Below are positions 2 through 48,086 of a stretch of DNA of 64,000 bases, piece after piece. A program made the translations under genes and the position numbers. The stretch covers positions 640,001-704,000 of the forward strand of contig CM000435.1 of assembly GCA_000165345.1 (NCBI GenBank), read 5' to 3'. The notes beneath the pieces were generated by a model. The model searched no databases. It saw nothing but the letters and a program-made list of their open reading frames with translations, and was not told the DNA's origin. Position 1 is the stretch's first letter. Every line of letters begins with the position of its first letter.

Positions 2-3000
2 TTCGAGTATAACTATGACTCAGGAACGTCTTTTCCTCACATTTATCCAAATAATATTGCACTTTTGATTGGAAAATATATAAGAGAAGATAAAACTATT
101 GGGAAAAATACTGTAACGATTTTTAGACCTATAGATGTATCTCAAATAGTCAATATTGCGAACTTTGTTGTAGAAATTATGGATGGATATGAGAAACTAC
201 TAAATAACACTCTTCCAATGAAATCAATAATTATTGTTTTTTCAAATTATATTTTTAATCAACATTCACATTTTTTCAATTGCCATGGGAGAGTTTCCGA
301 CACACTAGGTAAAGTAGAGATGCTTTCTAATGCATCATCACCGCTACTTTATCAAGAGAATAATTACTACTCTCACTTAAGCGAAACAGACATTGGTAAT
401 ACAATTGGTAACATAATTATTGTGCCATTAGATATGTTTCCCCATAAGGTGATATCTAATATGTCATCAGCAATTGATAACAAAAAGAATAATTTTCAAG
501 ACAATTTTAGAATGCAAATAAGAACTCTTACAATGCCAATAATAATATTATTGGATCGCTTGGCCAGCCTTTGGTTTGGATCTTATATTCATATAACAAA
601 TTTAAAACGGCTTCCAACAGATGGCTGGATGTTGTTGGGCATGAAAAGATATTTAATGCGTCAAATGGCAAAGAAGCTTTGCGGAGAAGACTTAGTTAAA
701 TGTAGAATGAAGGAAGCACTAGAGAGGTGTTTACTGCTCATAGAAAATGGAAATGATTATATCCCATTATCTGTAAAAGACTTTTACATCAATCTACAGC
801 AAAATGGCACACCAAGTTTTCCTCTAATTCATTGGAGTCAGAGAGAATGTCAAACCCTGTTTAGATTAAAATCAGACATTGTATTTCATAGTTTGCAATG
901 TTACGTTAATCAGATGATAAAAAGCAAAGCGCGCAAGGTTGGTTTTGGCTTTTCTGATTTTGATTCTTCTATTAAACAAAATTCACAATCAAAATTTTTC
1001 AACATATTTATTCAATCCTTCATTAATAAACATTGTATTAAAAAAAATCACAGGAATTTCACGACCCAACATTTTTTTCTGCATATTGCATCTTGTATTT
1101 CACAGCAGTTTATTCATAGATCTAAAAAGGAAATTGCGGCAGCTCAGCTTCCTCAACATGAACAATATCTACTTAATGAGATCCAAGACGAGCTACTTGC
1201 ATTTAGATCTGCTTGGATAGAAGGAGTTGGATGCCCAAATCTTACAATTACGTCTACTTTTCAATTTTCTAATAAAAATATTTCTCTTGATCATGCATTA
1301 TTTACGGTAGACCAAACACCACTGCAGCCTCCACATTTAACATCTAAGGAAGGAATTTCTTCATTCATTCCATTGGTATCGATATTTAAAGTTAAAAGAA
1401 ATATAGCCCCTAGATGCGATATTGAAAAGTTAATTTTTAATTGCCTTTCATTTATTGATGGTTTTTATAATTTTGGTGCCTCCAGAAGTCAACTTTCTAA
1501 TTCTATAACAAAATTGCTTCCATCCTTTCTTTGGCCCCATGATCCGAACAATATAATATTGAAGGAATCAAATATAACAATCCTTGGATTAGGAAATACA
1601 GGAAGAATTCCTATACCAATAAAATTTGGTTTTGGTCCATTATTTGACTCTGTATTCCAAGATGAATTACAAGAAAGTACTAAGAGACGTGTTGACCATC
1701 TAAATAATAAAATTAACATTGAAAGGTCAGCTCTTGATAATAATTTCAACAATTTAAATCAACTTGATGCCCCAAATAAAAAAAAGAATTATTCAGCTTC
1801 CTCGAATGGATGTATTTCTTCATGGCAATTTGGATATATGAACATACTTTGTCAAATTCTCCTAAATTATCACGAGAACATGTCAGAGCCAGTAAATGAT
1901 ATCGAATGGCTATGCACTGAATTAGCATCTCACATACCTATTTCGGGTGGAACAGGCAAATTTTGGCCAGGGCACACCTTGATTTATATAGTTCAAAACG
2001 AAGAAAATAAAAATTGTGAATTAGAAACTATAGAACCGCAACTACCTGTTCTTCAGGAAATAAAATTTGAAACTCAAAAAATTAAATCAGGTTATAGACG
2101 CGATTCTGTACCCGTATCAAACGCCTCTATTGCATCTTCAGTCTGTACCCAAGGAGTTACGAACAATCAGAATTCTATTACTCATGCAAACATTAAAGTG
2201 AATGAGGTTCCTAGACTATCTCTCCTTCACGATTTACAACAAAGAAAACATTTTGTAGGGAAGTTATCAAATAGCGATAATATTTGGTTGCAGCCACTTC
2301 AATTTTCTAGAAATTACAAAGAAATCATTTCTAGTGAAAATGAACAAATCTCAATGAATCGCACGGCAAATACGGTTAATTTTAATTCTCATCTATTGTG
2401 GATAATTGCAGACTCGTCACAATACTGGCTCGCGAAAATTTCAAGATATCAGACCTGGAGTATGTGGGATCAACAGTTTTTGAATGAAACTGATGTTATA
2501 GGACAGTTTGAGGCAGCATACCAGCTGGGGATGGAAAGATACATTTTTGGTGATTGTAGTGCTCATAACTTAACTATTCTGGAAAGAGCATTCCAGTCTA
2601 TTAATATACTAATGAGCGCACTATATCATTTTGACTGGAATATTTTTGTAAGAAAAAAAGCACTATTATCAATAATTAAAATTCATAATAAACTTTCTTC
2701 TCAAGTTTCAATAAAAAGTGGTATTCAATCAATCAAAACTGCTGTTTTTTCACTAATAAAAAAGTTTATTTTTGAGTTGATTTCATTGATAGGGTATCAA
2801 AAAAACAAAGAGCTAAGTAACATAACTTCAAATGTTTTTTTCTTTAATGAATTAGAGATTTTGTTATTTACAATTAAATCTCTATCATATTTGTGGAATT
2901 TTGAAGTGGATTCTAGCAGCTTTGAATCAGTTCATTTCCTAACAGAGTTATTGGATAAGTACGCAAACCCATCACATGATAAATTTAATTTTGAAATATT

Positions 3001-4612
3001 ATGCAGCATTTTTGAGGCAATAGAAAGAATAGTATTGCCCCCTTCAAATGACCAATATTCGTCCTTAATTAACAAAGTTACTTCTGTAATCAGTAAGCTG
3101 ATAGTTGGCTTGCTGAAGGGTTGCAACTATATATTTGAGGATGCTAAAATATTTGTAATATTGTTCAAAATATTATCAAAACATTCTATTAATATTCTTA
3201 TACCAGTAAGTAATGAGTTTAGAAATGACTTCGGTATTTATTTCGATCCACTATGGTTCATTGATCTTCCATTTATGTATAATAACGCTTGGTGGGATAG
3301 TTACTCATCTATACATGGTTCTATTTCAATGCCTTTGTACAAACTTAGTGAACCTATAATTCAACTTAGTGCATTAAAATGTTATTTCAGCTTGTCGCTT
3401 CAAGGATTTACAGAAACAATGGCTGTTTTTAGTGAGAACGACATAGAAAGTAATATTAAATTCAAATCTATTTCTCCTGAAGTTATTTATGGCTTGATTC
3501 TTGAGTCATTTTCTGAATGCAATAAGCAAACAAATTCACAACAAAATATCACTTCAACTTGTGGGAATAAAAAACCTGAAGCAATAAATATTATTGGAAT
3601 ATTCAATGTTTGGAATTTTAAGAAAAATAGCCCAGAAAATGTCGCTTCTGCTCGAATATTTCCAAAAAATTTATTAAAAACTTTATGTGCATGTGCGCTA
3701 ATCCATCTCATATTGTGGAATGGGATTAAAGAGAGTTTCAAACATAAAAAAAACAATTCAAACAATTGGAAAATAATCAATAGTTTGTGGAGCATTTTTA
3801 TCTGCGCACTTGATGACATAATCCGAGATTTTCCTCACCTTCTTGATGAGTTTATCTTATTACAGGCCCATGCAGAATTTGAACCGCTTATTAATTCATT
3901 AACTAATAAACAACACAAGAATAGAGAAACATTTGATGATATTAAACAATGTTGTATATTTATTTCCCAAATTATATTAAATAGTCCAATCTCACTCTCA
4001 TCATACCCATTTGATCCACTAATATTTCAAAATATTTCAAATATGTATATATCTTTATTTGGTCATGGAGTCCCTGTTTGTATGAATCAAACTCCATTTA
4101 TTTCTCAAGATGTTAAATGTAATCAGTTAGTATTTAATCCTTCTAATGGATATATCTTATCTGCAATACCAGAAGTACCCATGAAAGAGTCATTGCGAAA
4201 ACGCCAAAAATTCATTAAGAGAGGATGCGATTTATCAGATTCCATTCAAATTAGAAGGCTGTGCGATGATGAAAGTTATATTATTTCTAGAGGGTGGAAA
4301 CACATATGCAAAAAAATAACGCAATGTCTAATTGAGTCTCCATATGGGGCACCTTTTATTCACCCGGTTGATGAAAATGATGCTCCTGACTATTATAATC
4401 TTATTGAGCAGCCGATTGACTTATCAACAATAATGAATAAAGTAAAACAGGATTTGTATGAATCTATCGAACACTATCGTTCCGATGTTGACCTAATCTT
4501 TGCAAATTGCAAAAAGTACAATGAGTCAACTTCACAGATAGTTGAGTGGTGTAACAAAATCCAATCTGAATTTGACCAGTTATTTAAACCCGTTTGTAGA
4601 CTCTTTGCATAA
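2..4612 (+). CDS. TAF2: TFIID subunit TAF2-like protein with a C-terminal bromodomain; 5' partial, reading frame open to the window edge
   Basis: The frame of ORF 65..4612 stays open back to nt 2 (FEYNYDSGTSFPHIYPNNIALL precedes the TTG pseudo-start). An M1-aminopeptidase-like/TAF2 segment LASLWFGSYI...DGWMLLGMKRYL resembles the TAF2 WFG...W(L/V)KG(I/L)SGY(I/L) core. The C-terminal ~110 aa are a canonical bromodomain (FIHPVDENDAPDYYNLIEQPIDLSTIMNKV...YRSDVDLIFANCKKYNESTS). Stop at 4610-4612. Confidence 0.55.
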   Translation, partial: FEYNYDSGTSFPHIYPNNIALLIGKYIREDKTIGKNTVTIFRPIDVSQIVNIANFVVEIMDGYEKLLNNTLPMKSIIIVFSNYIFNQHSHFFNCHGRVSDTLGKVEMLSNASSPLLYQENNYYSHLSETDIGNTIGNIIIVPLDMFPHKVISNMSSAIDNKKNNFQDNFRMQIRTLTMPIIILLDRLASLWFGSYIHITNLKRLPTDGWMLLGMKRYLMRQMAKKLCGEDLVKCRMKEALERCLLLIENGNDYIPLSVKDFYINLQQNGTPSFPLIHWSQRECQTLFRLKSDIVFHSLQCYVNQMIKSKARKVGFGFSDFDSSIKQNSQSKFFNIFIQSFINKHCIKKNHRNFTTQHFFLHIASCISQQFIHRSKKEIAAAQLPQHEQYLLNEIQDELLAFRSAWIEGVGCPNLTITSTFQFSNKNISLDHALFTVDQTPLQPPHLTSKEGISSFIPLVSIFKVKRNIAPRCDIEKLIFNCLSFIDGFYNFGASRSQLSNSITKLLPSFLWPHDPNNIILKESNITILGLGNTGRIPIPIKFGFGPLFDSVFQDELQESTKRRVDHLNNKINIERSALDNNFNNLNQLDAPNKKKNYSASSNGCISSWQFGYMNILCQILLNYHENMSEPVNDIEWLCTELASHIPISGGTGKFWPGHTLIYIVQNEENKNCELETIEPQLPVLQEIKFETQKIKSGYRRDSVPVSNASIASSVCTQGVTNNQNSITHANIKVNEVPRLSLLHDLQQRKHFVGKLSNSDNIWLQPLQFSRNYKEIISSENEQISMNRTANTVNFNSHLLWIIADSSQYWLAKISRYQTWSMWDQQFLNETDVIGQFEAAYQLGMERYIFGDCSAHNLTILERAFQSINILMSALYHFDWNIFVRKKALLSIIKIHNKLSSQVSIKSGIQSIKTAVFSLIKKFIFELISLIGYQKNKELSNITSNVFFFNELEILLFTIKSLSYLWNFEVDSSSFESVHFLTELLDKYANPSHDKFNFEILCSIFEAIERIVLPPSNDQYSSLINKVTSVISKLIVGLLKGCNYIFEDAKIFVILFKILSKHSINILIPVSNEFRNDFGIYFDPLWFIDLPFMYNNAWWDSYSSIHGSISMPLYKLSEPIIQLSALKCYFSLSLQGFTETMAVFSENDIESNIKFKSISPEVIYGLILESFSECNKQTNSQQNITSTCGNKKPEAINIIGIFNVWNFKKNSPENVASARIFPKNLLKTLCACALIHLILWNGIKESFKHKKNNSNNWKIINSLWSIFICALDDIIRDFPHLLDEFILLQAHAEFEPLINSLTNKQHKNRETFDDIKQCCIFISQIILNSPISLSSYPFDPLIFQNISNMYISLFGHGVPVCMNQTPFISQDVKCNQLVFNPSNGYILSAIPEVPMKESLRKRQKFIKRGCDLSDSIQIRRLCDDESYIISRGWKHICKKITQCLIESPYGAPFIHPVDENDAPDYYNLIEQPIDLSTIMNKVKQDLYESIEHYRSDVDLIFANCKKYNESTSQIVEWCNKIQSEFDQLFKPVCRLFA

Positions 4613-4810
4613 AAATTTTTCAGCCACTGTCTAGCTTCGCAGACCGCAATTATTTGTCATAGTTTTTTTTTTTATAGTTTACATTTTCGAAAGCACTGTA
4701 GTGAATGTTGTAAATATATTTCAACATACTTCACTATTTTAGTTCCGAAATGTTTAGAAATTATAGTAACTGTTCAAAGCTTTAAATTTTTGATTATTGA
4801 AGAAGGTTCA

Positions 4811-6925
4811 ATGAGTTTTTTTTATCAAAATCATTCTGGAGATAAAACCAATCTCCAAATAAATAAAGGAGAGATATATGAACATGCAAAAAAAAAGCAG
4901 ATTGATTATGCTGTCAAACAGGGAATTACTGGCTCTATCAAGATGGTTTGGGGATTATGCTATGAATATTTTATTTCGAATGGTTCAAATGAATTAATTG
5001 GTAGACCTATTAATCGAAATAATGGAAAGAGTGTTTTGTCTAAAATAAAACTACCTAAATATAAATTATTACTGACTTTTTTGTTAATTCTCGGTTCTTC
5101 AATTGTTTCGTATTACTTCTCTTTATTAATTGGCAGTTTCTGGAGCGCATTGGAAACCAAAAACAAAGATAGATTTCAAAAAATTTTGTTCTACTATTTT
5201 TTAATGCTTATTATAAACGGAGCAATTAATTGTGCTAGAACTGATATGTCGATTCGAATTCAAATTGATTTAAGGATGTGGCTAACTAATTTGATTTTGA
5301 AACAATATTATTCTGATTTAACTTACTATCAGTTCTCAATAAATAAGATGATTGATAACCCTGACCAAAGAATTGGAGAGGACATTTCACTGTTTTCATC
5401 ACATTTATTATTGTTAATATGTCGTTGTATAGACAACTTATTCGACTTTTTTGTTTATTCAATATTGCTATACAATGTTAATTTCAAATTGTTTATTTCA
5501 GCAATTATTTATTCTTGTTTTGGCACATTTTTAACTGCTAAATTAGGCATGAATATAATATTATTAAAAGTTCAAGAAAAAAAGCTTGAAAGTGATTTTA
5601 GATATTCAATTATGAGAGTTGGTGAAAATGCAGAAAATGTTGCAATGTATGGAGGAGCTCAGTGCGAGATGGAAAGACATGAGCAAATTTTAAATTCACT
5701 GCTTCTCAACTTAACTACGAAAAGATCATTTGAATCTAAAATGGGACTCTTTGGAAGTATTTTTAGAAACCTAATACGTGTTCTGCCTATTGCGGTTATT
5801 TCAGGAGACTACTTTTCAGGAAATATCCAACTTGGGAGAATTAATCAGTGTAGCCTTGCATTTAACAGTATAGTTGAAGATATTTCAATTTTGGTCAATA
5901 CTTTTAGAGAAATAAGTAATCTACTTTCTTCAATAGATAGAGTAGGGCATTTTATTGCATCGATGGCAGATAACTATATTGAATCTCAATCTATAAATAT
6001 TGGAGAGAAATTAATTAGTAGTTTTGAGAATGATTCTAAAACTAGCAGAAAAATTGATTTCTTACATCTTGAAAGCGAGTTTTCAAGACAAATGAAGGAG
6101 AAATCTTTAGAATTTAAACTTAATTTCCCGGCAGGAATTGCTTCTAAGTCATTAAAAAATTGTGTTAAATTAGAATTTACAAACACTCAGGGGAAATCTT
6201 CGGTTAATATACGTGGAAAAATTAGATCAGTAATATGGCCAGAACCAAAAATTAAGTTTGAAAGTGTGTCGATTAATACTCCGGAAGAATATCCCAGGAA
6301 ACTCCTTTTTAATATAAACTTTATGATTGAACATAGCGATAAAGTCCTAATAACAGGGGACTCCGGCGTTGGGAAATCATCACTCTTAAAGGTAATTTGT
6401 GGGATTTGGAAGAATGGGTCAGGAAATATTTATAGGCCACCTTCTAGTGAATTATTATTTATACCGCAAAAACCCTACTGTACCCAAGCAACGCTAAGGG
6501 AACAACTGTTTTATCCGCAAATACCCTCAATTAAAACTAATGGCTATGAATATAAGAATAAGGAAGAACTAGATTCATATCTATTGAAAATTCTTGAGGA
6601 AGTTGGGCTGAAATATCTATGTGATCGACTTTCTGAAAGTGGAACAGTTAATTGCTTAGACACCATTAAAGACTGGTCAACAATACTTTCGCTTGGAGAA
6701 CAGCAAAGACTTGCATTTGCAAGAATATTTATTTTCAAACCATCTATTTGTTTCCTTGATGAAGCTACAAGTGCGTTAGACATGGAGACTGAAACAAAAT
6801 TATATTCAATGTTAAGTAAAAAAAAGTTTACATACGTTAGTGTAGGTCACAGGCCCTCAATATCAATATTTCACAACAAAAAACTCCTTATCAAAAATGG
6901 TAACATAATTTTTGAGTGTATATGA
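4811..6925 (+). CDS. ABC half-transporter, subfamily D (peroxisomal ALDP/PMP70-like)
   Basis: First ATG of ORF 4790..6925 (the track start is TTG). TMD carries the ABCD hallmark NPDQRIGEDI. The NBD has Walker A GDSGVGKSSLLKV, then IYRPPSSELLFIPQKPYCTQATLREQLFYPQ (compare ALDP VLYKPPPQRMFYIPQRPY...LRDQVIYPD), signature LSLGEQQRLAFARIF and Walker B ICFLDEATSALD. Confidence 0.8.
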   Translation: MSFFYQNHSGDKTNLQINKGEIYEHAKKKQIDYAVKQGITGSIKMVWGLCYEYFISNGSNELIGRPINRNNGKSVLSKIKLPKYKLLLTFLLILGSSIVSYYFSLLIGSFWSALETKNKDRFQKILFYYFLMLIINGAINCARTDMSIRIQIDLRMWLTNLILKQYYSDLTYYQFSINKMIDNPDQRIGEDISLFSSHLLLLICRCIDNLFDFFVYSILLYNVNFKLFISAIIYSCFGTFLTAKLGMNIILLKVQEKKLESDFRYSIMRVGENAENVAMYGGAQCEMERHEQILNSLLLNLTTKRSFESKMGLFGSIFRNLIRVLPIAVISGDYFSGNIQLGRINQCSLAFNSIVEDISILVNTFREISNLLSSIDRVGHFIASMADNYIESQSINIGEKLISSFENDSKTSRKIDFLHLESEFSRQMKEKSLEFKLNFPAGIASKSLKNCVKLEFTNTQGKSSVNIRGKIRSVIWPEPKIKFESVSINTPEEYPRKLLFNINFMIEHSDKVLITGDSGVGKSSLLKVICGIWKNGSGNIYRPPSSELLFIPQKPYCTQATLREQLFYPQIPSIKTNGYEYKNKEELDSYLLKILEEVGLKYLCDRLSESGTVNCLDTIKDWSTILSLGEQQRLAFARIFIFKPSICFLDEATSALDMETETKLYSMLSKKKFTYVSVGHRPSISIFHNKKLLIKNGNIIFECI

Positions 6926-8647: not shown

Positions 8648-11188
8648 ATGTCAAAAGGCCATGAATTGAGTTTTTTCAAATATATTCCAAATGTTTTTTC
8701 AAAAAAACCAAATTGTAAGAAATATTTTAGTTCTTTTGAAATTAAAAAAGTACTTTTAACGGAGAAAGATGGAATTAAATTAAAGCCTGAAGATAAAAAT
8801 CATAATTTAATTGAACTAATTACTAAATATAACTCATTTTGCAGTTATTATTTTAACATAATTAATAATATAGAATATAAGAATGACACATGCATAAAAT
8901 TGTTTCCAAAACATTCAATTAAAATGTTCAAAGTTCTAGGAGTGAATTTAACAGAGGAAGAGATTACTGAATTTTTTTGCAACTTTTTCCAAACTACTAA
9001 GAAAAAATGTTTTATTCATTCAACTTCAAATGCAGAACGTACCGTTGAAAACATGTTAATTTGGAATTTTTTAAGTAATTTTATTTATCAAAATACTAGG
9101 GGAGTAGATTTAATAAATTTAAAAAGCTTATTTAAGAACAATTTGTGTAATATGCATTTTAATGCTATGAAATCGATTATAATTGTAGATCAAAAATTCT
9201 TATCAGCTTTCTCTCCTTGCTCCTACAGTGTTTACTTTCCTCCAATAATGGATGAAGTTATTCCAATTTGTACTTCAATTGTAGATTTGGCTTGCAAATC
9301 TTTAAATAATTCCAACCCTGCAGAATGGTCAACTCAAATATTGGTTTGGATATCTAGTTTATTAAGAATTAGTGATTTTAATGGGGTATTAAAGATACTA
9401 ATTACAATGAATTCAATTCTAAATAATAATCACAATAATCTTAAGTCATCAATTTCTTATGGCGTGTTTCCTTATCTTTGGGAAGGACTATTGGATATGT
9501 TTTTGTTGATCAATCAGACTGTTTCGAGGTCCTTAATAAATATTGTCAAAACTATTCCAGTTTGCGGAATAGTTTTCAAATCAGAAATTTTAAAAAAGTT
9601 TTTTATTGAAGAAAGAGTGAATTTATCTATTGAATTCCAAAAAGAATTATCAAGTAAGCTCAGAGATGTAGAAAACACTATTAGCAAGTCACCTAATGCA
9701 AAGATCTTTCGAAATTTATTCTTAAAAAATGATACCTTTGATAAATTTCGACATCAAAGATATAATTTGTTAGAAAATTACAGAAATCTGGATAAAAGCA
9801 TTTATAGTTCAAAATTACCATACTCCTCAAAACATGAAAAAGCTCATTTTGAATCAATAAATAAAAACTTTGAAGGTAAATACAACCTGTTTCAGAATTG
9901 TAATAAACTCAAGCTGAATTCTGGACTAAATTCAGATAATTTGGAATTCAAAGTGATCAGGTATGAGAATTCTGTTTTGACTGTTTGTGCAATTTGCAAT
10001 AGCCGAATTTTTCGAAAAGGCGATATAACACTTATACAACCATTTAACAAACAACTTACATTAAATGGAAAACAAATCATGTCTTTTAGACAACTAGCTA
10101 TTGTTTTGAATGTTATTTTTATTAAGCAATCACTTAAGTTTCAAGGAAATACTTTGAAGCTAAAATTAAAAATAACTGATCCTGGAATAGATCCAAGTAT
10201 TTATAAGCATTGTATTATTATTTGTTTATTGAATTATTATAAATATATTAAAAAAACAACATTAATAAGACGTCTTTCATTAAAGTTCCCCCAACCATAC
10301 TTATCTTTGATAGAAAATATTAATAGAGAAATATTTGAAAACTTGATTTATAATTTATCAAATGAAAATAAAAGTCCTAACGACAAATTAGTTATTATTT
10401 TTTCTAAAAGGCTAAAGTACGTATATTTATACCATAGAGTAGAAATAAAATGCATATTATTTAGACAAGAAATATTCAATTTTAAAAATGACAGTTTTTT
10501 TAATAACAAGAGACAAGATTTATTCAGTTATTTGTTAAGCTTTCCAAAAATAGATTGCAATATTATAAAGAAAATAATATATTTGACAAAATTGCAAAAG
10601 AATATAGTTTTCTTGGCTTTAAACTCGATTGCAATGATTATAAATAATATGAACTACACTAACAGAATAAATATCATAAGTATGATAGCTTTTTTGCAGA
10701 AAGCTATCATTCCGAACGCAAAAATATTAATTCTTGCAAGTAGATTTGAATATGCAAAAATGATTAAGCATGCTCTATGTACTTTAAATATCTCCGCAAA
10801 GATATTAGAAGAAGAGTATATATTATACAAAGCAGAGTACATCAAACTTAGAACAGAAAAGAATAGTTTTAGAGGGCTCCCAAGATATGAAAATTGGTTA
10901 TATAGAGAAATGGTTGTAGAAGAACATGACATAATTATTATCAATAATATTGAACTTAACTTTAATTTTGTTAAAAAAAGTCTTAACATTGAAAGAAAGT
11001 CGAATGAAAGTTCATGTTTTGATCATTTACTTATAGAAGATGTTGGAGTATTGTCTAGATTAGATATTTTATTACTTTTCATATTACCATTTAATAATAT
11101 AACACTTTTTAATAGCGGATTTATGGTCAATGATTTTTTTACAAAAGGAGACGCGAAAAAATGGGTAGATATTGCATTAGGAGATTAA
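8648..11188 (+). CDS. hypothetical protein, 846 aa, no recognisable domain
   Basis: Long ATG-initiated ORF. Codon and amino-acid composition match neighbouring genes. No motif could be assigned with confidence. Confidence 0.45.
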   Translation: MSKGHELSFFKYIPNVFSKKPNCKKYFSSFEIKKVLLTEKDGIKLKPEDKNHNLIELITKYNSFCSYYFNIINNIEYKNDTCIKLFPKHSIKMFKVLGVNLTEEEITEFFCNFFQTTKKKCFIHSTSNAERTVENMLIWNFLSNFIYQNTRGVDLINLKSLFKNNLCNMHFNAMKSIIIVDQKFLSAFSPCSYSVYFPPIMDEVIPICTSIVDLACKSLNNSNPAEWSTQILVWISSLLRISDFNGVLKILITMNSILNNNHNNLKSSISYGVFPYLWEGLLDMFLLINQTVSRSLINIVKTIPVCGIVFKSEILKKFFIEERVNLSIEFQKELSSKLRDVENTISKSPNAKIFRNLFLKNDTFDKFRHQRYNLLENYRNLDKSIYSSKLPYSSKHEKAHFESINKNFEGKYNLFQNCNKLKLNSGLNSDNLEFKVIRYENSVLTVCAICNSRIFRKGDITLIQPFNKQLTLNGKQIMSFRQLAIVLNVIFIKQSLKFQGNTLKLKLKITDPGIDPSIYKHCIIICLLNYYKYIKKTTLIRRLSLKFPQPYLSLIENINREIFENLIYNLSNENKSPNDKLVIIFSKRLKYVYLYHRVEIKCILFRQEIFNFKNDSFFNNKRQDLFSYLLSFPKIDCNIIKKIIYLTKLQKNIVFLALNSIAMIINNMNYTNRINIISMIAFLQKAIIPNAKILILASRFEYAKMIKHALCTLNISAKILEEEYILYKAEYIKLRTEKNSFRGLPRYENWLYREMVVEEHDIIIINNIELNFNFVKKSLNIERKSNESSCFDHLLIEDVGVLSRLDILLLFILPFNNITLFNSGFMVNDFFTKGDAKKWVDIALGD

Positions 11189-11839: not shown

Positions 11840-14800
11840 ATGGATATTAATCTATTTGAGACGTTATTCGAGCTTTCAAGAAGTAATAGATTTGAAGATT
11901 TGTTATTTCAATGCATAGAGTTATTATTAAACAGGATTAGTACCATTTTTTCTTTCGAAAATAAACATGCCAATAACAAATCAAAAAATAAGAGAAATGC
12001 AGCTTTGTCTGATATTTTTGATAGTTTAATTGAAATTTTTGAATGTAATGCTCATATGGAAATAATTTTTGCAATTAAAAAAGGTTTGATGAAAGTAAAA
12101 AACTTTAGCCAAACAGAAAAGTTGTTTCAAACGAATATCAACAAAGTATTAAATTGTTTTAATGACATATATAAAATTTATGGATTTATTGCAGTTTGCT
12201 GTATTGAACTCAAAGAAAAAAAAACATTGACTCATTTTTTAATTCTATCTCACAATATTCTTCCCTGTTTTTTGATTGGAGATTTGCTCTTTCTAAAAAA
12301 AGGTGTAACAGGAGTTTGGAATACCGAAAAAGTATTGATATCTTCAATAGCAAGGGTTTCAAAAGAAATTTATCAAGACCATAATTCTAAATTTATATCC
12401 GCAAAAATGGAAGTATTATTTTTTTCATGGGTTATTTGTTTAGACAATTGGTTGGAATACTTAAGAACTAGAATATTTATAATTGATAATTTTCAGAGAA
12501 ATTTTTCGGAAGATATATTGGGTTTGGTAAAATATATTAAAGAATTATTTTATTTGATTTCAAAATCAAATCTATCATATTACTATCAAATATTGATTAT
12601 TGTTAATTTTTGTGATAGTTTATCAATTAATGTTTTGAATAATGTTGAATTTTTTGATGTAATAAAAAATCCATCATTAAATATCAATTTTTTATCGGTA
12701 GCAATTGAAAATGATGGCTTATTGAAAGGTATTATTAAATTATTAAATAAATTTATTAAATTTAGAATGTATACCACAATTGTGGATTTACTTGCTATTC
12801 TAAATGGTTTATCTACATTGCTTATTAATATTATTCATCAGAGGATGAAAAAATTAAATGACACAGAAATAAATTTAAATAATGGAATAAATGATGATCT
12901 TTTAATAAACTCAATTAAATATTATAGTTTCGAAATTGAATTTAGAAGAACAAAGCTAGTAATAATGGAGTTACACTATTTGAAAGCGAGCCTTTGTATT
13001 CCAAATCAATTATTAGTTGAAAGACTATATTCTATCGAGGATTCATTAAATAAACTTAGCCAAAATGTAGGTTTTAACGAAAGATATCAAAAAGCAATAA
13101 CAAGTTATTTATTTCTAACGATAGGAGTAATTAATTCCTTTTCTAAAATTGACCTTGACAAAAATTTAATTTTTTTTGTTGGCAATCTACTTGGGACACA
13201 ATGTTTATTGCTAAAAAGTATCTTGAAAGAAAAATTCTTTTGCGATGAAATTTTTTTAAAAAATATGGATAGTTATCGCATCTCATTATTAGAATACACT
13301 GTGAGACAGATCTTTTTTTTAAAAAATAAAAGTAATTTCAAAGTATTGTGTAAAGATTGTATTTTTAAAGTAGTCAAAATTTTGTCTCTATTTTTGAAAA
13401 TTCAAAGCAATCAACCTCAAGACTATAAAATCGAGGAAAACATTGGGATTAACAATAAAATAAATATAAAGTTTAAAACAAGTATTTGTGAGGTAGTATT
13501 AAAATCTATTCAATTTACGAATGCTATATTGGATGAGTTATTTATTATCATGGAGAAAATTATTGAGGAAATTTTGAATACAGTACAAATTGAAGACAAT
13601 AATAATATGGACGAGATTATATTAAATTTCTTGCTTTCAACATCAGAAAATTTAATTCGTCTTTCATCACAGATGAAATCAAATAAAAACTATCAAGATT
13701 CAATTAAATTGTTAAGTTTAGCTTTAAAATGTTTATCAAATACATTTAGCGTGCCATGGATTGCCACAAATGAATCAATGTATGATATTGAAAAGAAAAT
13801 AGAAAAATTAAAGATATTTGAAGAAAGTTCAAGTGATGATTTATCAGAATATTCATGCTCAACTCCAGATCAAAAAGAAGATTACTTTCAAGTAAAAAAT
13901 AATCTGATTGAAAATTCAATTGAAAATACAAAAAATCATAATACTTGCGCAAGGTTTTGGAAAAACGAAAACTTTGAAGTTTACAATGAAAGTTTTAAGC
14001 ATAAAAATGCTGATTTAATTTCATATAGCTCTAATATAGAATTTGGAAATGCTTTTACTCCTTTTACCCGAAGATTAAAAAGTAAAGGTTTATCTCAATT
14101 AAAATCACAAACAATTAAAAGAATTCAAACTTCAGCAATATCTTATATTGCCAGGGGTAAATCTAAATTTAATAAGATAAGTGATAGAGAAGTAATTGCA
14201 CTTACCCAAAGATTAAAAGATAGTGAAGTTGATTTTCCAATACATATTTTGCTATTTTTAATAGCAATTGATCAAATAATTTCCTCCATTCAATTTCAAT
14301 TTGCTCAAGAACCAACTCAATCTTTCTTAAATAATATAATGTTACTGGTTGAAGAGAAATTACGCACTCTCTTTACATTAATTGACGATCGCAGTTATTT
14401 ATTTATTTTTGGTAATAAAATTGTTGAACTTTTTCCATTTATTGAAAAATACAAAAAAATTAACTTTCTAAAGAATGAAATAATAAAAAATAACACAAAT
14501 AACTATGATGAGTTAATTGAGCAATATTTTTTTAATTTACTAAATTCAATTATTTCAAGGTTTGCAAAAACAAAAATGCTTTTAATCAATGAATATTCTG
14601 CAGAAAAAATAACATTGTATAGATACCCTGAAGTTGAAAACGAAAGAAATAATATGATTAAAGTTGTTTGGTTTACTTTGGAATTAAATTATTATTTGTA
14701 CTTGCGTGAAATATCTAAAAAATATAACCAAATATTTAAAAAAGGGATTTCAAATGGATTTTGTGAAGAATTGTTTAATATTTACAAAATTGTTAATACA

Positions 14801-17800
14801 TTTATAGATGAGAGCAGAGAAAAAGCATTAGTTGAATCCAAATTAAATTTCGAGTCGTATTTCAAATTCAAAGTTGAATTTTTAAATTACTATTTGTGGT
14901 TTATAAAAGTTAAATTTATTATTCAAAATGAGAATGTGGAGTCAAAATTAATTTTCGAAAATGAAATAAATAAACTTCTTTACGAATTAACTTCACTAAT
15001 AAAAAAAACAAATATAAGTTCTAAATTATTATTTCTATCTAAAATTAATATCTATGAAATTTACTTATTATTCTTTGAAGATTACAGAATAACTAAAATT
15101 ATGACCAATTTTTCTAAAGACAAGAATAATAGAATTTACATGGTTTTAAAGGAATCGCTTGATTTATTGTACAGTTATTTAGGATTTAATAGAGGTTATA
15201 GTGATCAAAGTTTTCATGAATTACTTTCCATAGAATATTGGAAAAATAAGCAGCTACAAATAAACTATGATTTAATTTTAGACGAAGACTTGGATAGTTT
15301 AAAAAATATCGAAAGCGATAAATCTTTAAATGAATTTGAAGACATTCCTATACCTATTAACAAAAAGTTAAGTAATTCTAAATATAATGAAAAAAATAAA
15401 TTATGTAAGCTTGAAGAAAGCGACCACACGAAATTAATTCAAAATACTAAGACCTTTGTAAAGTTTGAAATATGTGAACCAATAAATAAATATCAAGAGG
15501 TTTATTTAAGCTTTATTCATGAAATTGGTTTAATTGAGCTTGAAATTTTATTTAACAGTGTTTATGAAATAAAAGAGTTAATTTTACTTCAAGATTTAGA
15601 TCTGAAATTGTTAAAAGAGTTATTTAACGCTGTTCTATATCTATTTAATCCATGTTGGACATTTACCTTGTCTTCCAAAACTGATATATTTGACAAAGAG
15701 AAGATATCTAAAAAGATGTATATTTCTTTAAGTGGGTTTGTAAGCAATTTAAAACTATCATTAAGCAGCACTGAACAGAGGGAAATGCTAATTATTAATA
15801 TCGGATTATTTATTTCTAATGTTCTTTATTACTCAGCTCAGATTACTAATAAAGAGACATATTATTTAAACAAATCTACTCCAAGATGGATGGATATTGC
15901 AAAAACCTATACGGATGGCTTGATATTTTTAATTGAAAGTAAATATTTGTTAATAAGCGATTTTCTTGATACAAAGTTATTAACTCCATTTTCTGTTACA
16001 GAAGTTTTATTAAATTTAATTGTACTAAAAATAGAGCATATTGAAACAATAAATGATGCTTTTCAATATTTAGAAATAGTTAAGAAGGTAAAAATTTATG
16101 ATTCTGATAAAGACAATCATAACACTATGGCACTACTAATTAGAATAATGAATAAATTATCTACTCTTTTTATGAATGCAAATCAGCCTGATATGTCGTT
16201 ATTTTATCTACTTGAATCAAATAAAATTTCACAGAATATTACATTATTCTTGGAAACATGTGGTATTAATTCTTTAAATTTGCAGCGCACCGTTTTGTCA
16301 GCTTGCATATCACATAATTTTCAATTTTATTACATTAATTTGGTGTTAAAATCATTGCATAAATTAGGAGAATCTTGGTGGAAGTTAGGGGCGATTGAGA
16401 GGTCGCAAAGCGTATATAGTAAGCTAATAACTTTTTATAAAAAATGGACAATACCTTATAAAAAATTCATAACATTATATTTCTACCAACTTCCTACACT
16501 ATTAAATCATCTATTTTCAAGATCAGACTCTCAATATAATTTAATTTATTCTGCAGACAATATCGACTCATTTAAACAAATCTTGCTTGAAAAAAATGAT
16601 AACTTTGAAAGTTCTTCACATATTATTTTTCTCAAAGAAATATTAGAATACACTAGAATAATTTCAAATTGTACATGCTTAAGTATTTTTGAAGAGGAAG
16701 TCATATTGATGATGCTACTATTCGTACTTTTATATTTTACTTTGAATAATAGCTTATCAATAATAAAAGACTACTTTATTGCTAATTTTTCATTCATTTT
16801 ACAAACTCCTGAATTCTTAACAGAAATAAATCAATCTAAAATCATTTTAACGTTCAGAAAAATTATTCTTAAATTACTTAACTATGAAATAAACTCTTCT
16901 GGCTTAATCTTGGAATTACTTTCAATAAATATAAGCGAATATTCAGAAAACAAGCATTTCATGTTTTTTTTTTGCAATTCAATTAATCATATGTTAGTAT
17001 TTATTTCTTCAAAATATACTGAAATTATTGGTAATTATTTTAGTAAAAAATGGTCAAAAAAAATAAATGATAACATTGTAATTTTGGAAACCAAATTTGA
17101 TATTAAAAAGTTAACATCGAATATAAAAAAAAATAGCATTGAATTTACAATAAAAGAAATATGCAATCTAATTATTTCAATCAAGCAAATGCTTTCAATC
17201 GAATTAACTCCAATAGAATCTCAAGTGAAATTAATTGAAGCCACGAAATTAAATAGTTCAAATATAAAAAATACATTAATATTAAATAATTTGATTGGAA
17301 AATATGAATTAACTCTGTTAATTGATCAGTTGGATGAAAATAGGTCAAGAATTAAGAATAGATTACACCTATTCAAACAAATATTGACATTTGTTAATAT
17401 TATTTTCAATCATATGCTTTTAAACGAAAGAATGAATTATTATTTACTTAACCAAATTTCTATATCAATCATTCTAGATATTGTATTATTAATGAAAGTT
17501 CTATGTTATCCAGATACAAGTTGGAATGCCATTTTTTGTTCTTTTATCAACTCTTTAACCCCTATTTCTCTACTAAATGACTATTCATTTTCAATTATAC
17601 AGTCAATTAGAAAAATTCAAAGAGAATTTGAACATTTTAAATTTATATATAAGAACAATAACTCAGTTTTTGATGGTAATTCTCAATCAAGTTTACTTAA
17701 ATTTTTCCTGGAACATAAAAATAATGAATTTCCCACTTGGCAATGGGGAGAGGAAGTATCTATTAAGGAAATTGGAGATAATATCTCAATGGTTTATTTC

Positions 17801-19168
17801 CGACTTTCAACATTCTTCGCTAGCTCCACGTATAGAAATTCAAATGATTGTAAATATTCACTATTACAGATCACTAGAGATTTTTCCTTGAATAAATACT
17901 TAAATAGAGAAGTTTCTATAAATAATCAATTAATGCTAAGCTCATCAAAGTTAACTTTGCTCTATTTCATTGAAAATAATCAGGCAAATGAACTATTGGA
18001 GGAGTTTGATAATATTCAACGTATGAATACAGAAAGTATAATTAAAATTGATGTTAACACTAATTCTAGTGAACAAACAAGGAAATGGTGGAATAGAAGA
18101 ATATATATTGAATCTAGGTTAAATAGTTGGCTAAATAAGTTCTCAAATCAAATATTAAAGGGATGGACGTCGAAACTATTTTATGGATGGCGTAAAGAGT
18201 TAAATTCTGAGAAAAATATTAAACAAGTAGCGGAATTTATAAAAACCTATTTGATTGATATTGACCAATCATTGATTGGAATTATTATATTTTCCTTAAC
18301 AAATAATATACCTCAAATCCTTAATTTATTAGAATCTGACAATATACTCAATTTTAATCTAAAAGATATTTGTGTCAAATTCAAAAAAATAAAGTTCCAG
18401 TCAATTAAAAATAAAGTTGAAAATTTCCCTACAATCATTTTTTTAGATAAAATATTAATCAGTTTGCCAATAGAAAGTATTTGCGATTTGAAATTTCAAC
18501 CAATCACTAGAGGGATTAACAGAAGAATGTGTAAAAATAATATCGATAATCTATTTAATCAGCTTCAGAAATCTAAAGAAAGCAACCTTCGTTTGCTTGC
18601 CAGCTTCTGTAATATATATTATTGCATAAATCCAACTGGAGATTTAGAAGAAACTGAAAAGACTGTTATTGAATTCATTAAACAAAAATTTGGTTCAAAA
18701 TGTTCAGGAATATCGAATTCAATTCCTCAAGCAACAGAAATTATGAATACTATGAGTTTTAATCGATCTAATCTCTATCTATTTTGCGGTCACCAGGCTG
18801 GAGAAAAGTTTATCCAAGGAGAGTTGTTTGAAAGAGGAATAATCACTGAGAATTTGGAGTCAGAAAATTATCACTTCTATATGCCTCCTTCGTTGTTAAT
18901 TGGTTGTAGCTCTTCCAAAATAAGATCATATGGGTCAAACCATGTATTTTTTACGCCAATTCACTACCTAATTGGTGGAAGCCCTTTAATTCTCGGAGCG
19001 CTTTGGGACGTTACTGACCAAGATATAGACCGCTTTACTATGTCAATTTTTGACAATTGGGTTGGATCAAAACTCTCATTGGTTGAATCAATTACACTCG
19101 CAAAACAAGAATGCAAGCTTCCTTTACTGAATGGGTCATCTTGTGTTTGCTTTGGCTACCCTATTTAA
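11840..19168 (+). CDS. ESP1: separase (separin, peptidase C50), 2442 aa
   Basis: The C-terminal caspase-like domain carries the separase catalytic dyad context: LYLFCGHQAGEKFIQ (His) and SLLIGCSSSKI (Cys). A very long helical N-terminal region precedes it, as in Esp1/Cut1/ESPL1. Single uninterrupted 7.3-kb exon. Confidence 0.8.
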   Translation: MDINLFETLFELSRSNRFEDLLFQCIELLLNRISTIFSFENKHANNKSKNKRNAALSDIFDSLIEIFECNAHMEIIFAIKKGLMKVKNFSQTEKLFQTNINKVLNCFNDIYKIYGFIAVCCIELKEKKTLTHFLILSHNILPCFLIGDLLFLKKGVTGVWNTEKVLISSIARVSKEIYQDHNSKFISAKMEVLFFSWVICLDNWLEYLRTRIFIIDNFQRNFSEDILGLVKYIKELFYLISKSNLSYYYQILIIVNFCDSLSINVLNNVEFFDVIKNPSLNINFLSVAIENDGLLKGIIKLLNKFIKFRMYTTIVDLLAILNGLSTLLINIIHQRMKKLNDTEINLNNGINDDLLINSIKYYSFEIEFRRTKLVIMELHYLKASLCIPNQLLVERLYSIEDSLNKLSQNVGFNERYQKAITSYLFLTIGVINSFSKIDLDKNLIFFVGNLLGTQCLLLKSILKEKFFCDEIFLKNMDSYRISLLEYTVRQIFFLKNKSNFKVLCKDCIFKVVKILSLFLKIQSNQPQDYKIEENIGINNKINIKFKTSICEVVLKSIQFTNAILDELFIIMEKIIEEILNTVQIEDNNNMDEIILNFLLSTSENLIRLSSQMKSNKNYQDSIKLLSLALKCLSNTFSVPWIATNESMYDIEKKIEKLKIFEESSSDDLSEYSCSTPDQKEDYFQVKNNLIENSIENTKNHNTCARFWKNENFEVYNESFKHKNADLISYSSNIEFGNAFTPFTRRLKSKGLSQLKSQTIKRIQTSAISYIARGKSKFNKISDREVIALTQRLKDSEVDFPIHILLFLIAIDQIISSIQFQFAQEPTQSFLNNIMLLVEEKLRTLFTLIDDRSYLFIFGNKIVELFPFIEKYKKINFLKNEIIKNNTNNYDELIEQYFFNLLNSIISRFAKTKMLLINEYSAEKITLYRYPEVENERNNMIKVVWFTLELNYYLYLREISKKYNQIFKKGISNGFCEELFNIYKIVNTFIDESREKALVESKLNFESYFKFKVEFLNYYLWFIKVKFIIQNENVESKLIFENEINKLLYELTSLIKKTNISSKLLFLSKINIYEIYLLFFEDYRITKIMTNFSKDKNNRIYMVLKESLDLLYSYLGFNRGYSDQSFHELLSIEYWKNKQLQINYDLILDEDLDSLKNIESDKSLNEFEDIPIPINKKLSNSKYNEKNKLCKLEESDHTKLIQNTKTFVKFEICEPINKYQEVYLSFIHEIGLIELEILFNSVYEIKELILLQDLDLKLLKELFNAVLYLFNPCWTFTLSSKTDIFDKEKISKKMYISLSGFVSNLKLSLSSTEQREMLIINIGLFISNVLYYSAQITNKETYYLNKSTPRWMDIAKTYTDGLIFLIESKYLLISDFLDTKLLTPFSVTEVLLNLIVLKIEHIETINDAFQYLEIVKKVKIYDSDKDNHNTMALLIRIMNKLSTLFMNANQPDMSLFYLLESNKISQNITLFLETCGINSLNLQRTVLSACISHNFQFYYINLVLKSLHKLGESWWKLGAIERSQSVYSKLITFYKKWTIPYKKFITLYFYQLPTLLNHLFSRSDSQYNLIYSADNIDSFKQILLEKNDNFESSSHIIFLKEILEYTRIISNCTCLSIFEEEVILMMLLFVLLYFTLNNSLSIIKDYFIANFSFILQTPEFLTEINQSKIILTFRKIILKLLNYEINSSGLILELLSINISEYSENKHFMFFFCNSINHMLVFISSKYTEIIGNYFSKKWSKKINDNIVILETKFDIKKLTSNIKKNSIEFTIKEICNLIISIKQMLSIELTPIESQVKLIEATKLNSSNIKNTLILNNLIGKYELTLLIDQLDENRSRIKNRLHLFKQILTFVNIIFNHMLLNERMNYYLLNQISISIILDIVLLMKVLCYPDTSWNAIFCSFINSLTPISLLNDYSFSIIQSIRKIQREFEHFKFIYKNNNSVFDGNSQSSLLKFFLEHKNNEFPTWQWGEEVSIKEIGDNISMVYFRLSTFFASSTYRNSNDCKYSLLQITRDFSLNKYLNREVSINNQLMLSSSKLTLLYFIENNQANELLEEFDNIQRMNTESIIKIDVNTNSSEQTRKWWNRRIYIESRLNSWLNKFSNQILKGWTSKLFYGWRKELNSEKNIKQVAEFIKTYLIDIDQSLIGIIIFSLTNNIPQILNLLESDNILNFNLKDICVKFKKIKFQSIKNKVENFPTIIFLDKILISLPIESICDLKFQPITRGINRRMCKNNIDNLFNQLQKSKESNLRLLASFCNIYYCINPTGDLEETEKTVIEFIKQKFGSKCSGISNSIPQATEIMNTMSFNRSNLYLFCGHQAGEKFIQGELFERGIITENLESENYHFYMPPSLLIGCSSSKIRSYGSNHVFFTPIHYLIGGSPLILGALWDVTDQDIDRFTMSIFDNWVGSKLSLVESITLAKQECKLPLLNGSSCVCFGYPI

Positions 19169-26720: not shown

Positions 26721-27070
26721 TGGGAAAGTCAAAATTTAACGAAAATTATTAAATATATTTGTAAAAACAAAGTTTTCTAATTTAAAAGTATATATAACCT
26801 GTGATTAGCTTTGACAATATAATGAAATTTTCTTACCAATTACTTTCCATTTTAATTTTTCTGTTTAGAGCATGACCAATACATGCAATTTTTGGCGGTC
26901 TATTTACGCATTTACAATTTAGCCGATGAAGAAAGATGTAAAATAATGAAATTAAAAAACTAATAAATTACATTAGTCAAATTTATCTAATGAACCTCAA
27001 TAAAACAGTGAAATTTTGAGTATTACCTATTTCATAATATCAAATAATATATTTTAAAATATAGCAAAAA

Positions 27071-28255
27071 CTATTTATTTGAAGGGTTATTAATTGTGCA
27101 ATGATCATTAATTGCGCCATCAGCATTGAAAATATTTTCAGAAATATCTGAATTAAAACTTATTTGATCTTTGTCAGCACAAGCCTTGCTGTTGTAGCAA
27201 GCATTAGACTCATTATTTTTGTTAATAACAATAGGTGTATCATCCAGGTGAATATATTCAAATGCAAAGTCATTTTTTATCTTTTGGCACCAATCTTTCT
27301 CAAAATCAAAATATATATAGTCTGCAACTTCGGCATCTTCTGTAGTAATTTTTGAATCAGATCTTTTATAAAACCAAGCAAAACATTTTTTATGAAATTG
27401 CCATTTTTTTCTTTTAAGCTCTTGAATTGATAAGAACTGTTGAAATGTCCCTTGTTGAAAATAAAAAATAAAAAATAAAGTGTCCAAAGCCAACTTATCA
27501 AAAAACGAAGTGTTAGCCAACTTTTCAAGTGGTCTAGAAGGAAAATCAGATCTTGGATTATGCCAAACCATTCTTGGAGTATATTGAATATGCCTGCCAA
27601 TTGAATCCTGTATCTCTAGTTTGTTATTAAATGAATTATCTAGAATATCTGTATTTAAATGTTTAGATACATCCATACGAAATCCTATCGAATGCTTATA
27701 TTCATCCGTATTTTCAATCGGTATCTCTGTATTATTTCCAGGTTTAACAATTCTCTCCCTAGTGTAAATATCGTTTTCATTAAGTTTTTCTGGACTGAAA
27801 CTATCCTTAATATAATTATCGGCATTAATTTGGCTAAGTTTAACTTCATTATCAATTCTTAGTTCAGAAAATTCGTCATTTAAAAGATCGCCTACAGACT
27901 TTGATTCGAAATCATTTATTTGCAATTTTTTGTCCCCTTGTGAATGATCATTATTCATTTTTATTTCTTTAAAGTTAACAATAGATCCCTTTAGAGACTG
28001 TAGTGACTCATGACACTTTTCCAAAATATACTTCTCAGAAACGAAATCCGTTTGATTAGATGACACAATTCTACTTTCTACTATTTTCTTCTCTACAATA
28101 TGCAACTTTTCTTTAATTTCTCTGATTTCTGTTTCGAACTTATTAACTTCATATTTATTTTTTGATAAAATATTTACAATAGACACTATAGCTTTTAAAT
28201 CGCTTTCACATTTTGAAAAAATTGAGCATATCAGATTTAATTCGCTATCTGCCAT
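27071..28255 (-). CDS. NOT3: CCR4-NOT complex subunit, NOT3/NOT5 family (compact form)
   Basis: The C-terminal NOT box LFFIFYFQQGTFQQFLSIQELKRKKWQFHKKCFAWFYKR...ADYIYFDFEKDWCQKIKNDFAFEYIHLDD aligns with CNOT3 [39 protein letters not shown]...[28 protein letters not shown]. An N-terminal MAD... coiled coil resembles the Not3 N-domain. Confidence 0.75.
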   Translation of the reverse strand: MADSELNLICSIFSKCESDLKAIVSIVNILSKNKYEVNKFETEIREIKEKLHIVEKKIVESRIVSSNQTDFVSEKYILEKCHESLQSLKGSIVNFKEIKMNNDHSQGDKKLQINDFESKSVGDLLNDEFSELRIDNEVKLSQINADNYIKDSFSPEKLNENDIYTRERIVKPGNNTEIPIENTDEYKHSIGFRMDVSKHLNTDILDNSFNNKLEIQDSIGRHIQYTPRMVWHNPRSDFPSRPLEKLANTSFFDKLALDTLFFIFYFQQGTFQQFLSIQELKRKKWQFHKKCFAWFYKRSDSKITTEDAEVADYIYFDFEKDWCQKIKNDFAFEYIHLDDTPIVINKNNESNACYNSKACADKDQISFNSDISENIFNADGAINDHCTINNPSNK

Positions 28256-29954: not shown

Positions 29955-30060
29955 TGAAAAGAGAAAAAAAACTGAAGAAAATTTATAAATAAAAATTTTG
30001 CGTAAATGCAACTAGCACTTTAATGCACAATATTTCTGCTTAAGAAAATTTGTAATTTAG

Positions 30061-38109: not shown

Positions 38110-38302
38110 TCTAATAAATTTCTGTTCGGGAGGAGAGCAATACAAATTAAATATTTAAGTTATTTCGCCTTAATGGCAACTAAGAAACAATATTATTAAT
38201 TTCATGAAACATTTTAGCCCCACGCAATTAGCGTGTGCATAGATGATGCCGCCAGAAAAAAAATGGTTAGGTCTGCAGAAAAATTCAGGAAAAAAAAACT
38301 AT

Positions 38303-47860: not shown

Positions 47861-48086
47861 TTACACCAGCACCAATTTCTGTGATAGAATATGAATAATC
47901 CTATGCTCAACGTTTCTAATAAAAAGTCATTTGCGGGAATATTTTACGAATATCACAATATGAGGAAACTAATTTACTGGGTGGGGGGACTGAGGGGATC
48001 TTCCAAAACTTCCGGAACTAAGAGTTTTATATTTTTTACACAATTTTTTGAAAATATTTCTGTTTCAATTCTCGGGGTGTTTAATA

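Follow-up and report, generated by a model that had tools for sequence, protein, structure and literature searches.

TAF2 (TFIID subunit 2) carries one to six bromodomains in several fungal phyla, a gain described as confined to the fungal branch (Antonova et al. 2019, PMC6672047). In the malaria parasite, PfTAF2 (MAL7P1.134) was predicted by PSI-BLAST (Callebaut et al. 2005), and the malaria and Toxoplasma literature lists PfTAF2/BDP6 (PF3D7_0724700, essential) and TgTAF2/150 (TGME49_214240) as bromodomain proteins. The same literature table contains Cryptosporidium parvum cgd4_650, with a bromodomain and a TFIID-subunit-1 domain, and several unnamed bromodomain genes of C. parvum, none of which is labelled TAF2. 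No functional studies of any apicomplexan TAF2 were found in the literature. Here we describe the first gene in a stretch of 64,000 nucleotides (nt) of C. parvum DNA (GenBank assembly GCA_000165345.1, contig CM000435.1, positions 640,001 to 704,000 of the forward strand), which is referred to as the window. We suggest that this gene, deposited as "FALZ protein," very probably encodes the C. parvum orthologue of TAF2 with a C-terminal bromodomain. A first-pass annotation of the window had proposed a TAF2-like TFIID subunit at this place, and the proposal is borne out by significant profile tests and by the column-for-column alignment of a degenerate HExxH helix with canonical TAF2. It had also held that the combination of TAF2 and bromodomain would be a lineage-specific domain rearrangement. 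The novelty that this implies cannot be kept, because the architecture has already been named in Plasmodium and Toxoplasma and documented in fungi.

Positions 2-4612 of the forward strand form an uninterrupted frame of 1,536 codons, which ends with a TAA stop at 4610-4612. Because about one stop per 13 codons is expected at 69% A+T, the probability of meeting no stop over this run is about 1e-54, and no competing frame of more than 110 amino acids (aa) was found in the other frames around it. The translation is identical to residues 247-1782 of the FALZ protein of C. parvum Iowa II (EAZ51582.1/UniProt A3FPP3), and therefore the N-terminal 246 codons lie upstream of the window, which contains the 3' 86% of a gene for a protein of 1,782 aa; the open reading frame (ORF) had rightly been described as truncated at its 5' end. 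The orthologues of C. meleagridis (94% identity), C. hominis, C. ubiquitum, and C. canis have about 1,780 aa, and those of C. andersoni, C. muris, and C. serpentis about 1,900 aa; the BLAST identity to the C. andersoni protein is 35% over 65% of the query. The orthologues are named "FALZ protein," "bromodomain protein," "hypothetical protein," and, once, "histone acetyltransferase GCN5" in the databases. Unlike PfTAF2/BDP6 and TgTAF2/150, none of the Cryptosporidium genes is labelled TAF2 in the source records examined.

Homology to TAF2 outside the bromodomain

One basis of the assignment is an exhaustive search, in which a bromodomain-free profile of four Cryptosporidium sequences (full-length positions 1-1195) was compared with 1.84 billion representative proteins. 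The 24 significant matches were apicomplexan homologues or TAF2s, and no genuine member of the M1 peptidases, a very abundant family, was among them. Besides Cryptosporidium, the matched groups were gregarines (Ancora, Selenidium, and Gregarina), coccidia (Besnoitia and Cystoisospora), piroplasms (Babesia and Theileria), Cardiosporidium, and a few contaminant records. The Theileria homologue carries the UniProt name "Transcription initiation factor TFIID subunit 2," and the gregarine and Theileria homologues, as well as the matched protein P0022, give sub-threshold matches to the Pfam TAF2 models. Three other matched proteins are recognized as TAF2 by Pfam. P0025 (E = 1.3e-7) contains Peptidase_M1_N, Peptidase_M1, TAF2_3rd (109 bits), TPR_TAF2_C (162 bits), and a C-terminal bromodomain, and its core matches animal, plant, and fungal TAF2 with E values of about 1e-100. 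P0030 (E = 6e-5) contains TAF2_3rd, TPR_TAF2_C, and two bromodomains. P0035 (E = 5.7e-4) contains Peptidase_M1, TAF2_3rd, and TPR_TAF2_C, and its E values are 1e-76 for human TAF2 and 1e-71 for yeast Taf2, versus 1e-10 for ERAP1.

The matches to these Pfam-verified TAF2s form three collinear blocks at TAF2 domain boundaries: the "HExxH" helix of the M1 domain, the junction of the M1 and Ig-like domains, and the junction of the Ig-like and HEAT/TPR domains, that is, the TAF2_3rd/TPR_TAF2_C boundary. In profile-profile comparison by hhalign, the probability was 97% (E = 8e-11) against four TAF2s. Against 20 canonical TAF2s, a first match of 474 columns covered full-length residues 18-667 in the M1-like domains (98.6%, E = 7e-16), and a second of 184 columns covered residues 1042-1260 at the Ig-to-HEAT junction (90.3%, E = 1.5e-6), so that the proximal part alone of the HEAT domain is detected by homology. 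A profile of apicomplexan sequences only, cut before the bromodomain, recovered canonical TAF2s at 100-170 bits (lamprey, 136 bits, 1e-38; asparagus, 127 bits, 4e-36; snail, 104 bits, 4e-29; E values at PDB database size), with the caveat that its rows came from an alignment built jointly with canonical TAF2s. The same profile did not match P0090, an M1-like protein without TAF2 domains.

Among the database records retrieved, P0035 is flagged UNVERIFIED_CONTAM in the assembly of the chytrid Siphonaria sp., and P0023, deposited as a "LOW QUALITY PROTEIN" of the pika Ochotona princeps, has a match with E = 5e-11 to the junction block of apicomplexan TAF2. The latter is probably a parasite contamination of the pika assembly.

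In window coordinates, positions 2-1261 of the forward strand encode M1-aminopeptidase-like pseudo-peptidase domains, which run from the last part of the N-terminal beta domain through the thermolysin-like "catalytic" domain into the beginning of the third domain, as delimited by hhalign against canonical TAF2 and by the modelled helices and strands. The region of the degenerate zinc site (551-655) was located by alignment with the 20 canonical TAF2s, and it contains the motif LASLWFGSYI...DGWMLLGMKRYL on which the TAF2-like call had been based (window-protein residues 184-218). Here LDRLASLWFG (551-580) takes the position of the M1 HExxH motif, with H-E-x-x-H replaced by D-R-L-A-S, and DGWMLLGMKRYL (620-655) takes that of the third zinc ligand, with the Glu of the WLNEGFA type replaced by Leu. 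LDRLASLWFG...DGWMLLGMKRYL...GEDLVKCR aligns with the TAF2 consensus xALAxQWFG...D.WL..G...Y...GNNEYRFR. The second conserved motif, LLWIIADSSQYWLAKISRYQTWSMWDQQFLNETDVIGQFEAAYQL (2393-2527), lies at the Ig-like/HEAT/TPR junction and aligns with the TAF2 consensus LWIRxDPD...QP..MW..QL..D.DV.AQ.EA. In these alignments, the other apicomplexan sequences are intermediate between Cryptosporidium and canonical TAF2.

The M1-like domains raise the question of an active metallo-aminopeptidase of the M1 family with an incidental bromodomain. Active M1 peptidases have an HExxH-x18-E zinc site and a GxMxN substrate-anchoring motif. Neither HExxH (HE..H) nor GxMxN (G.M.N) occurs anywhere in the protein of 1,782 aa, and D, S, and L stand where M1 peptidases have their zinc ligands. 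The GxMxN exopeptidase motif is also absent from all TAF2 (Antonova et al. 2019, PMC6672047). We also considered the predicted fold. An AlphaFold 2 model of the first 1,200 residues of the window protein, built on an alignment of 37 sequences that included TAF2s, had a predicted local distance difference test score (pLDDT) of 61 and a predicted template modelling score of 0.69, with 489 residues at a pLDDT of at least 70; the model is confident in the thermolysin-like domain, in the third-domain beta strands, and in the helical repeats, but not in the insertions. An earlier AlphaFold prediction on C. meleagridis residues 1-1195 with a 4-sequence alignment reached a pLDDT of only 28 and was discarded. 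In a Foldseek search of the PDB with the 1,200-residue model, the top match was human TAF2 in the TFIID-based pre-initiation complex (7edx_B, E = 2.7e-10), and M1 aminopeptidases followed from 7e-7. The modelled fold is thus M1-like, as expected of TAF2, and the fold alone cannot tell TAF2 and M1 peptidases apart, so that any distinction has to come from the sequence. At that level, the missing HExxH and GxMxN motifs, the substituted zinc ligands, the TAF2-specific junction motif, the recovery of TAF2s but no M1 peptidases in the exhaustive search, and the failure of the apicomplexan profile to match P0090 led us to reject an active M1 peptidase, which we regard as extremely improbable.

The remaining part of the putative TAF2 body is less conserved. 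An insertion of about 350 residues inside the third (Ig-like) domain (1328-2380, forward strand) has no hhalign match to canonical TAF2. It is conserved in Cryptosporidium and is partly common to the homologues of Ancora, Babesia, and Theileria (profile positions about 575-934), and it is mostly of low confidence in the model, with a pLDDT below 50 over much of window-protein residues 446-796. The segment at 2384-3040 contains the TAF2-specific signature LLWIIADSSQYWLAKISRYQTWSMWDQQFLNETDVIGQFEAAYQL and the first HEAT-like repeats, which are supported by hhalign, by the alignment, and by modelled helical repeats with a pLDDT of 75-90. It is followed by a helical region (3041-4240) that is conserved among Cryptosporidium species but has no detectable hhalign match outside Apicomplexa; helices are predicted up to about model residue 1175. 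We infer that this region is the divergent rest of the TAF2 HEAT/TPR domain together with a linker.

Several observations weigh against a TAF2 that works within TFIID. With the window protein and four full-length orthologues, Pfam searches at E values up to 1 returned the bromodomain only, and PF25316 (TAF2_3rd), PF25577 (TPR_TAF2_C), and PF01433 were not matched. Of the profile check that the first-pass annotation had put forward, the bromodomain half (PF00439) therefore succeeded, and the TAF2/PF01433 half gave no Pfam match and needed deeper methods. The curated TAF2 models fail on the Cryptosporidium protein because the sequences are too divergent, and this extreme divergence, like the approximately 750 residues without a counterpart in canonical TAF2, would fit a TAF2-derived protein that has kept the scaffold but acts outside TFIID in another chromatin complex, such as a complex peculiar to the parasite that reads acetylation or one associated with GCN5; the insertion and the bromodomain would then be the source of new interactions. 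Apicomplexan TFIID is also apparently reduced or unusual, with few histone-fold TAFs detected, and Toxoplasma TAF1 and TAF5 co-purify with GCN5b. However, all sampled Apicomplexa have kept the junction signature of TAF2 and the M1-like core, no second TAF2 candidate of Cryptosporidium surfaced in any search, and C. parvum has a TAF1 as well as a TAF12-like ORF within the window. We therefore consider a role outside TFIID unlikely and favor the assignment as the TFIID subunit TAF2.

Other searches were also uninformative. PDB sequence searches with the whole protein or a full-length alignment were dominated by bromodomain chains, and a bromodomain-free profile of four Cryptosporidium sequences found neither TAF2 nor an M1 peptidase in the PDB, with two chance-level matches (mL49 and a cytidine deaminase). 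When distant homologues without the bromodomain were combined in a mixed alignment, the MAFFT profile was poor, and a word-indexed search with it, limited to 8,000 candidates, returned only Cryptosporidium proteins.

The bromodomain and the integrity of the gene

The C terminus had been annotated as a canonical bromodomain in the last 110 or so residues, and this was confirmed. Pfam PF00439 matches window-protein residues 1436-1517 (4307-4552, forward strand), within the last approximately 100 residues of the protein, with 73.3 bits against a cutoff of 21.7 and covers 82 of the 84 profile positions (1-82); the motif quoted earlier, PDYYNLIEQPIDLSTI...LIFANCKKYNE, lies inside this match. The acetyl-lysine pocket of bromodomains consists of the ZA-loop PF..PVD, the Tyr of PDYY, and the BC-loop Asn, which anchors the acetyl-lysine. 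PFIHPVD (4352-4372), PDYYNLI (4385-4405), and NCKKYNE (4505-4525) are found at the corresponding places on the forward strand, and the pocket elements PF..PVD, PDYY, P(I)DL, and the asparagine of NC..YN are all present and aligned with those of the homologues. To judge from these motifs, the acetyl-lysine pocket is intact.

In PDB sequence searches, the bromodomain matches those of TAF1, BPTF, BRD4, GCN5, CBP/p300, and PBRM1. The current GenBank and UniProt name implies that the protein is a homologue of BPTF/FALZ, a subunit of the NURF remodeller, and the BPTF bromodomain does score well against the bromodomain alone (60 bits, E = 5e-16). However, scores against TAF1, BRD4, GCN5, and PBRM1 are comparable, and the second bromodomain of TAF1 is among the best matches (48.9 bits). 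Pfam found no PHD, DDT, or other BPTF domain in the full-length orthologues, which have the bromodomain alone in common with BPTF, and the other approximately 1,650 residues are homologous to TAF2. The BPTF/FALZ identity was rejected on domain content and has almost no probability in our view; the name "FALZ" presumably stems from a match to the BPTF bromodomain.

Gene models need some caution at this locus. The deposited "FALZ" or "ABC transporter" proteins of C. xiaoi, C. bovis, C. ryanae, and the chipmunk genotype (including P0015, P0055, and P0056) are 2,800-2,860 aa long. In the C. xiaoi and C. bovis models, the bromodomain is located mid-protein at about residue 1,700; ABC domains are present in the models of C. 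xiaoi, C. ryanae, and the chipmunk genotype, and the C. bovis protein has no domain listing. These long models look like erroneous fusions of the TAF2 gene with the downstream ABC transporter gene.

Since the "FALZ" models of 2,800 aa (C. xiaoi, C. ryanae, and the chipmunk genotype) continue into the ABC transporter, the C. parvum protein might itself be suspected of being an artefact of gene modelling or assembly, in which a TAF2-like gene was joined to a separate bromodomain gene. In the window, however, no stop interrupts the frame between the TAF2 core and the bromodomain, and a TAA stop and a spacer of 177 nt precede the ABC transporter ORF. More than 10 Cryptosporidium species share this order of domains, and it recurs in gregarine transcriptomes, in coccidia, and in piroplasms. 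A fusion artefact was rejected because of the open frame and the recurrence of the arrangement across Apicomplexa, and we see very little chance of it.

A TAF12-like ORF and other features of the window

A second TFIID-related ORF lies at 46315-46761 on the forward strand. The first-pass annotation had described it as a TAF13-like histone-fold ORF. Pfam and PDB sequence matches agree with a histone-fold-like protein of 148 aa but not with TAF13: the best Pfam model is TAF12 (PF03847, 24.4 bits, under the 27-bit cutoff) versus 13.7 bits for TAF13 (PF02269), and the best PDB matches are human TAF12 (E = 0.005-0.009). The ORF is probably a divergent TAF12-type histone-fold protein, and it is notable because histone-fold TAFs were reported to be undetectable in Plasmodium (Callebaut et al. 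2005).

The downstream neighbour of the TAF2 gene (4790-6925, forward strand) encodes an ABCD-type ABC transporter with ABC_membrane_2 and ABC_tran domains by Pfam. Another protein of the window that may combine two activities is encoded at 49161-51164 on the forward strand. This ORF of 667 aa has an mRNA cap guanine-N7 methyltransferase domain (residues 306-636, 167 bits by Pfam), and its N terminus gives a sub-threshold match to the mRNA triphosphatase beta chain (PF02940, 20.6 bits versus a cutoff of 24, residues 28-129); the ORF may be a fusion of two capping enzymes. An ORF of 1,275 aa without a Pfam domain (41594-45421, forward strand) contains repeats at 43698-45394. The C-terminal half consists of a tandem 81-bp (27-aa) unit similar to KKEADTSIQTKSNLKIPPKKDFSTPP, of which about 16 copies with 87% identity form an array at 44111-45394, with variant periods upstream.

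The 2-kb segment at 30001-32000 shows strong strand asymmetry (GC skew of -0.47 and AT skew of -0.28) and is overlapped by an ORF of 883 aa without a Pfam match on the reverse strand (30061-32712). Five further long ORFs (797-1,517 aa) have no Pfam family at E values up to 0.001: 8648-11188 and 19610-24163 on the forward strand, and 24264-26732, 32878-35271, and 38303-40780 on the reverse strand. The remaining neighbours are ordinary housekeeping genes, encoding separase (11840-19168), NOT2/3/5 (27071-28255), KIN17 (29088-29885), a papain-family protease (36088-38145), SLBP (46844-47860), an MPN/JAB protein (48048-49028), an MCM-family helicase with a sub-threshold match to the MCM5 C-terminal model (51316-53691), and a cytidylyltransferase (56850-58052).

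Proposed function, possible origin, and comparison with known systems

Based on the domain content, we propose that the C. parvum protein is a catalytically dead M1-like scaffold of beta, thermolysin-like, Ig-like (with the large apicomplexan insertion), and HEAT/TPR domains, which would be extended by the C-terminal bromodomain. By analogy with other eukaryotes, the TAF2 body would reside in lobe C of TFIID with TAF1 and contact the initiator and downstream promoter DNA, and the bromodomain may bind acetylated lysines on promoter-proximal nucleosomes or on partner proteins. A bromodomain-bearing TAF1, which the first-pass annotation had proposed to look for in this genome, is present as cgd4_650. 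Because cgd4_650 carries both the TFIID-subunit-1 domain and a bromodomain, the TAF2 bromodomain is no replacement for that of TAF1; together, the two bromodomains could help to hold TFIID at acetylated promoters.

A bromodomain closes every full-length apicomplexan homologue examined, among them those of Ancora, Selenidium, Gregarina, Besnoitia, Babesia, and Theileria (including an alternative Theileria gene model), which suggests that the domain was acquired once, before the apicomplexan lineages diverged. Cryptosporidium and the gregarines also share a conserved stretch leading into the bromodomain. In our judgment, the chances are about even that the TAF2-bromodomain fusion goes back to a common ancestor of all Apicomplexa (gregarines, Cryptosporidium, coccidia, piroplasms, and Plasmodium) and is independent of the fungal gains. 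If so, it would contradict the published fungal-branch specificity of TAF2 bromodomains, the TFIID of these parasites would read histone acetylation through single bromodomains on two subunits, as a split equivalent of the metazoan TAF1 tandem, and the third-domain insertion of about 350 residues would serve the clade as an interaction surface of its own. The description of TAF2 bromodomains as "fungal-specific" is in any case incomplete.

What is new here is the explicit evidence that the Cryptosporidium "FALZ protein" is a TAF2 orthologue. The advance is modest, and specialists would not be surprised by it, since the architecture is already known in Plasmodium, Toxoplasma, and fungi. A gene that escapes classification by standard domain searches can now be called TFIID subunit TAF2 in place of the misleading names "FALZ protein" and "bromodomain protein." Alongside the TAF12-like ORF in the same window, this assignment extends the sparse inventory of basal transcription factors of Cryptosporidium. 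It also means that the TAF2-bromodomain architecture reaches the deepest apicomplexan branches, which bears on the coupling of TFIID to histone acetylation, at a time when parasite bromodomains are being explored as drug targets.

The closest known counterparts are PfTAF2/BDP6 and TgTAF2/150, which are listed in the literature as predicted TAF2s with a bromodomain, the architecture of the C. parvum protein. Close relatives of Plasmodium and Toxoplasma (Besnoitia, Cystoisospora, Babesia, and Theileria) are direct profile matches of the Cryptosporidium family. However, PfTAF2 (3,351 aa) and the Besnoitia homologue (3,014 aa) are much longer than the Cryptosporidium protein (1,782 aa), and the bromodomains of coccidia and piroplasms are more degenerate, with WF..DPE in place of the PF..PVD of Cryptosporidium.

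The TAF2s of Basidiomycota, Mucoromycota, and Blastocladiomycota likewise have an M1-like and HEAT core with added bromodomains and without GxMxN (PMC6672047). They belong to another eukaryotic supergroup and have a variable number of bromodomains, and their gain possibly offsets the loss of the TAF1 bromodomain (PMC6672047), whereas C. parvum TAF1 retains its own.

Canonical human and yeast TAF2 (7edx_B, 6mzl_B, and 6hqa_A) have the same pseudo-enzyme core, Ig-like third domain, and HEAT/TPR domain, and have the motifs xLAxxWFG and LWI..D...W......MW..Q...D.DV..Q.EA in common with the Cryptosporidium protein, to which their identity is about 15-20%; they differ in lacking both the bromodomain and the third-domain insertion. 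In metazoans and yeast, acetyl-lysine reading is given to TFIID by the tandem bromodomains of TAF1 and by Bdf1, respectively. There, however, tandem bromodomains are carried by another subunit (TAF1) or by a separate protein (Bdf1), in contrast to the single bromodomain at the C terminus of the C. parvum protein.

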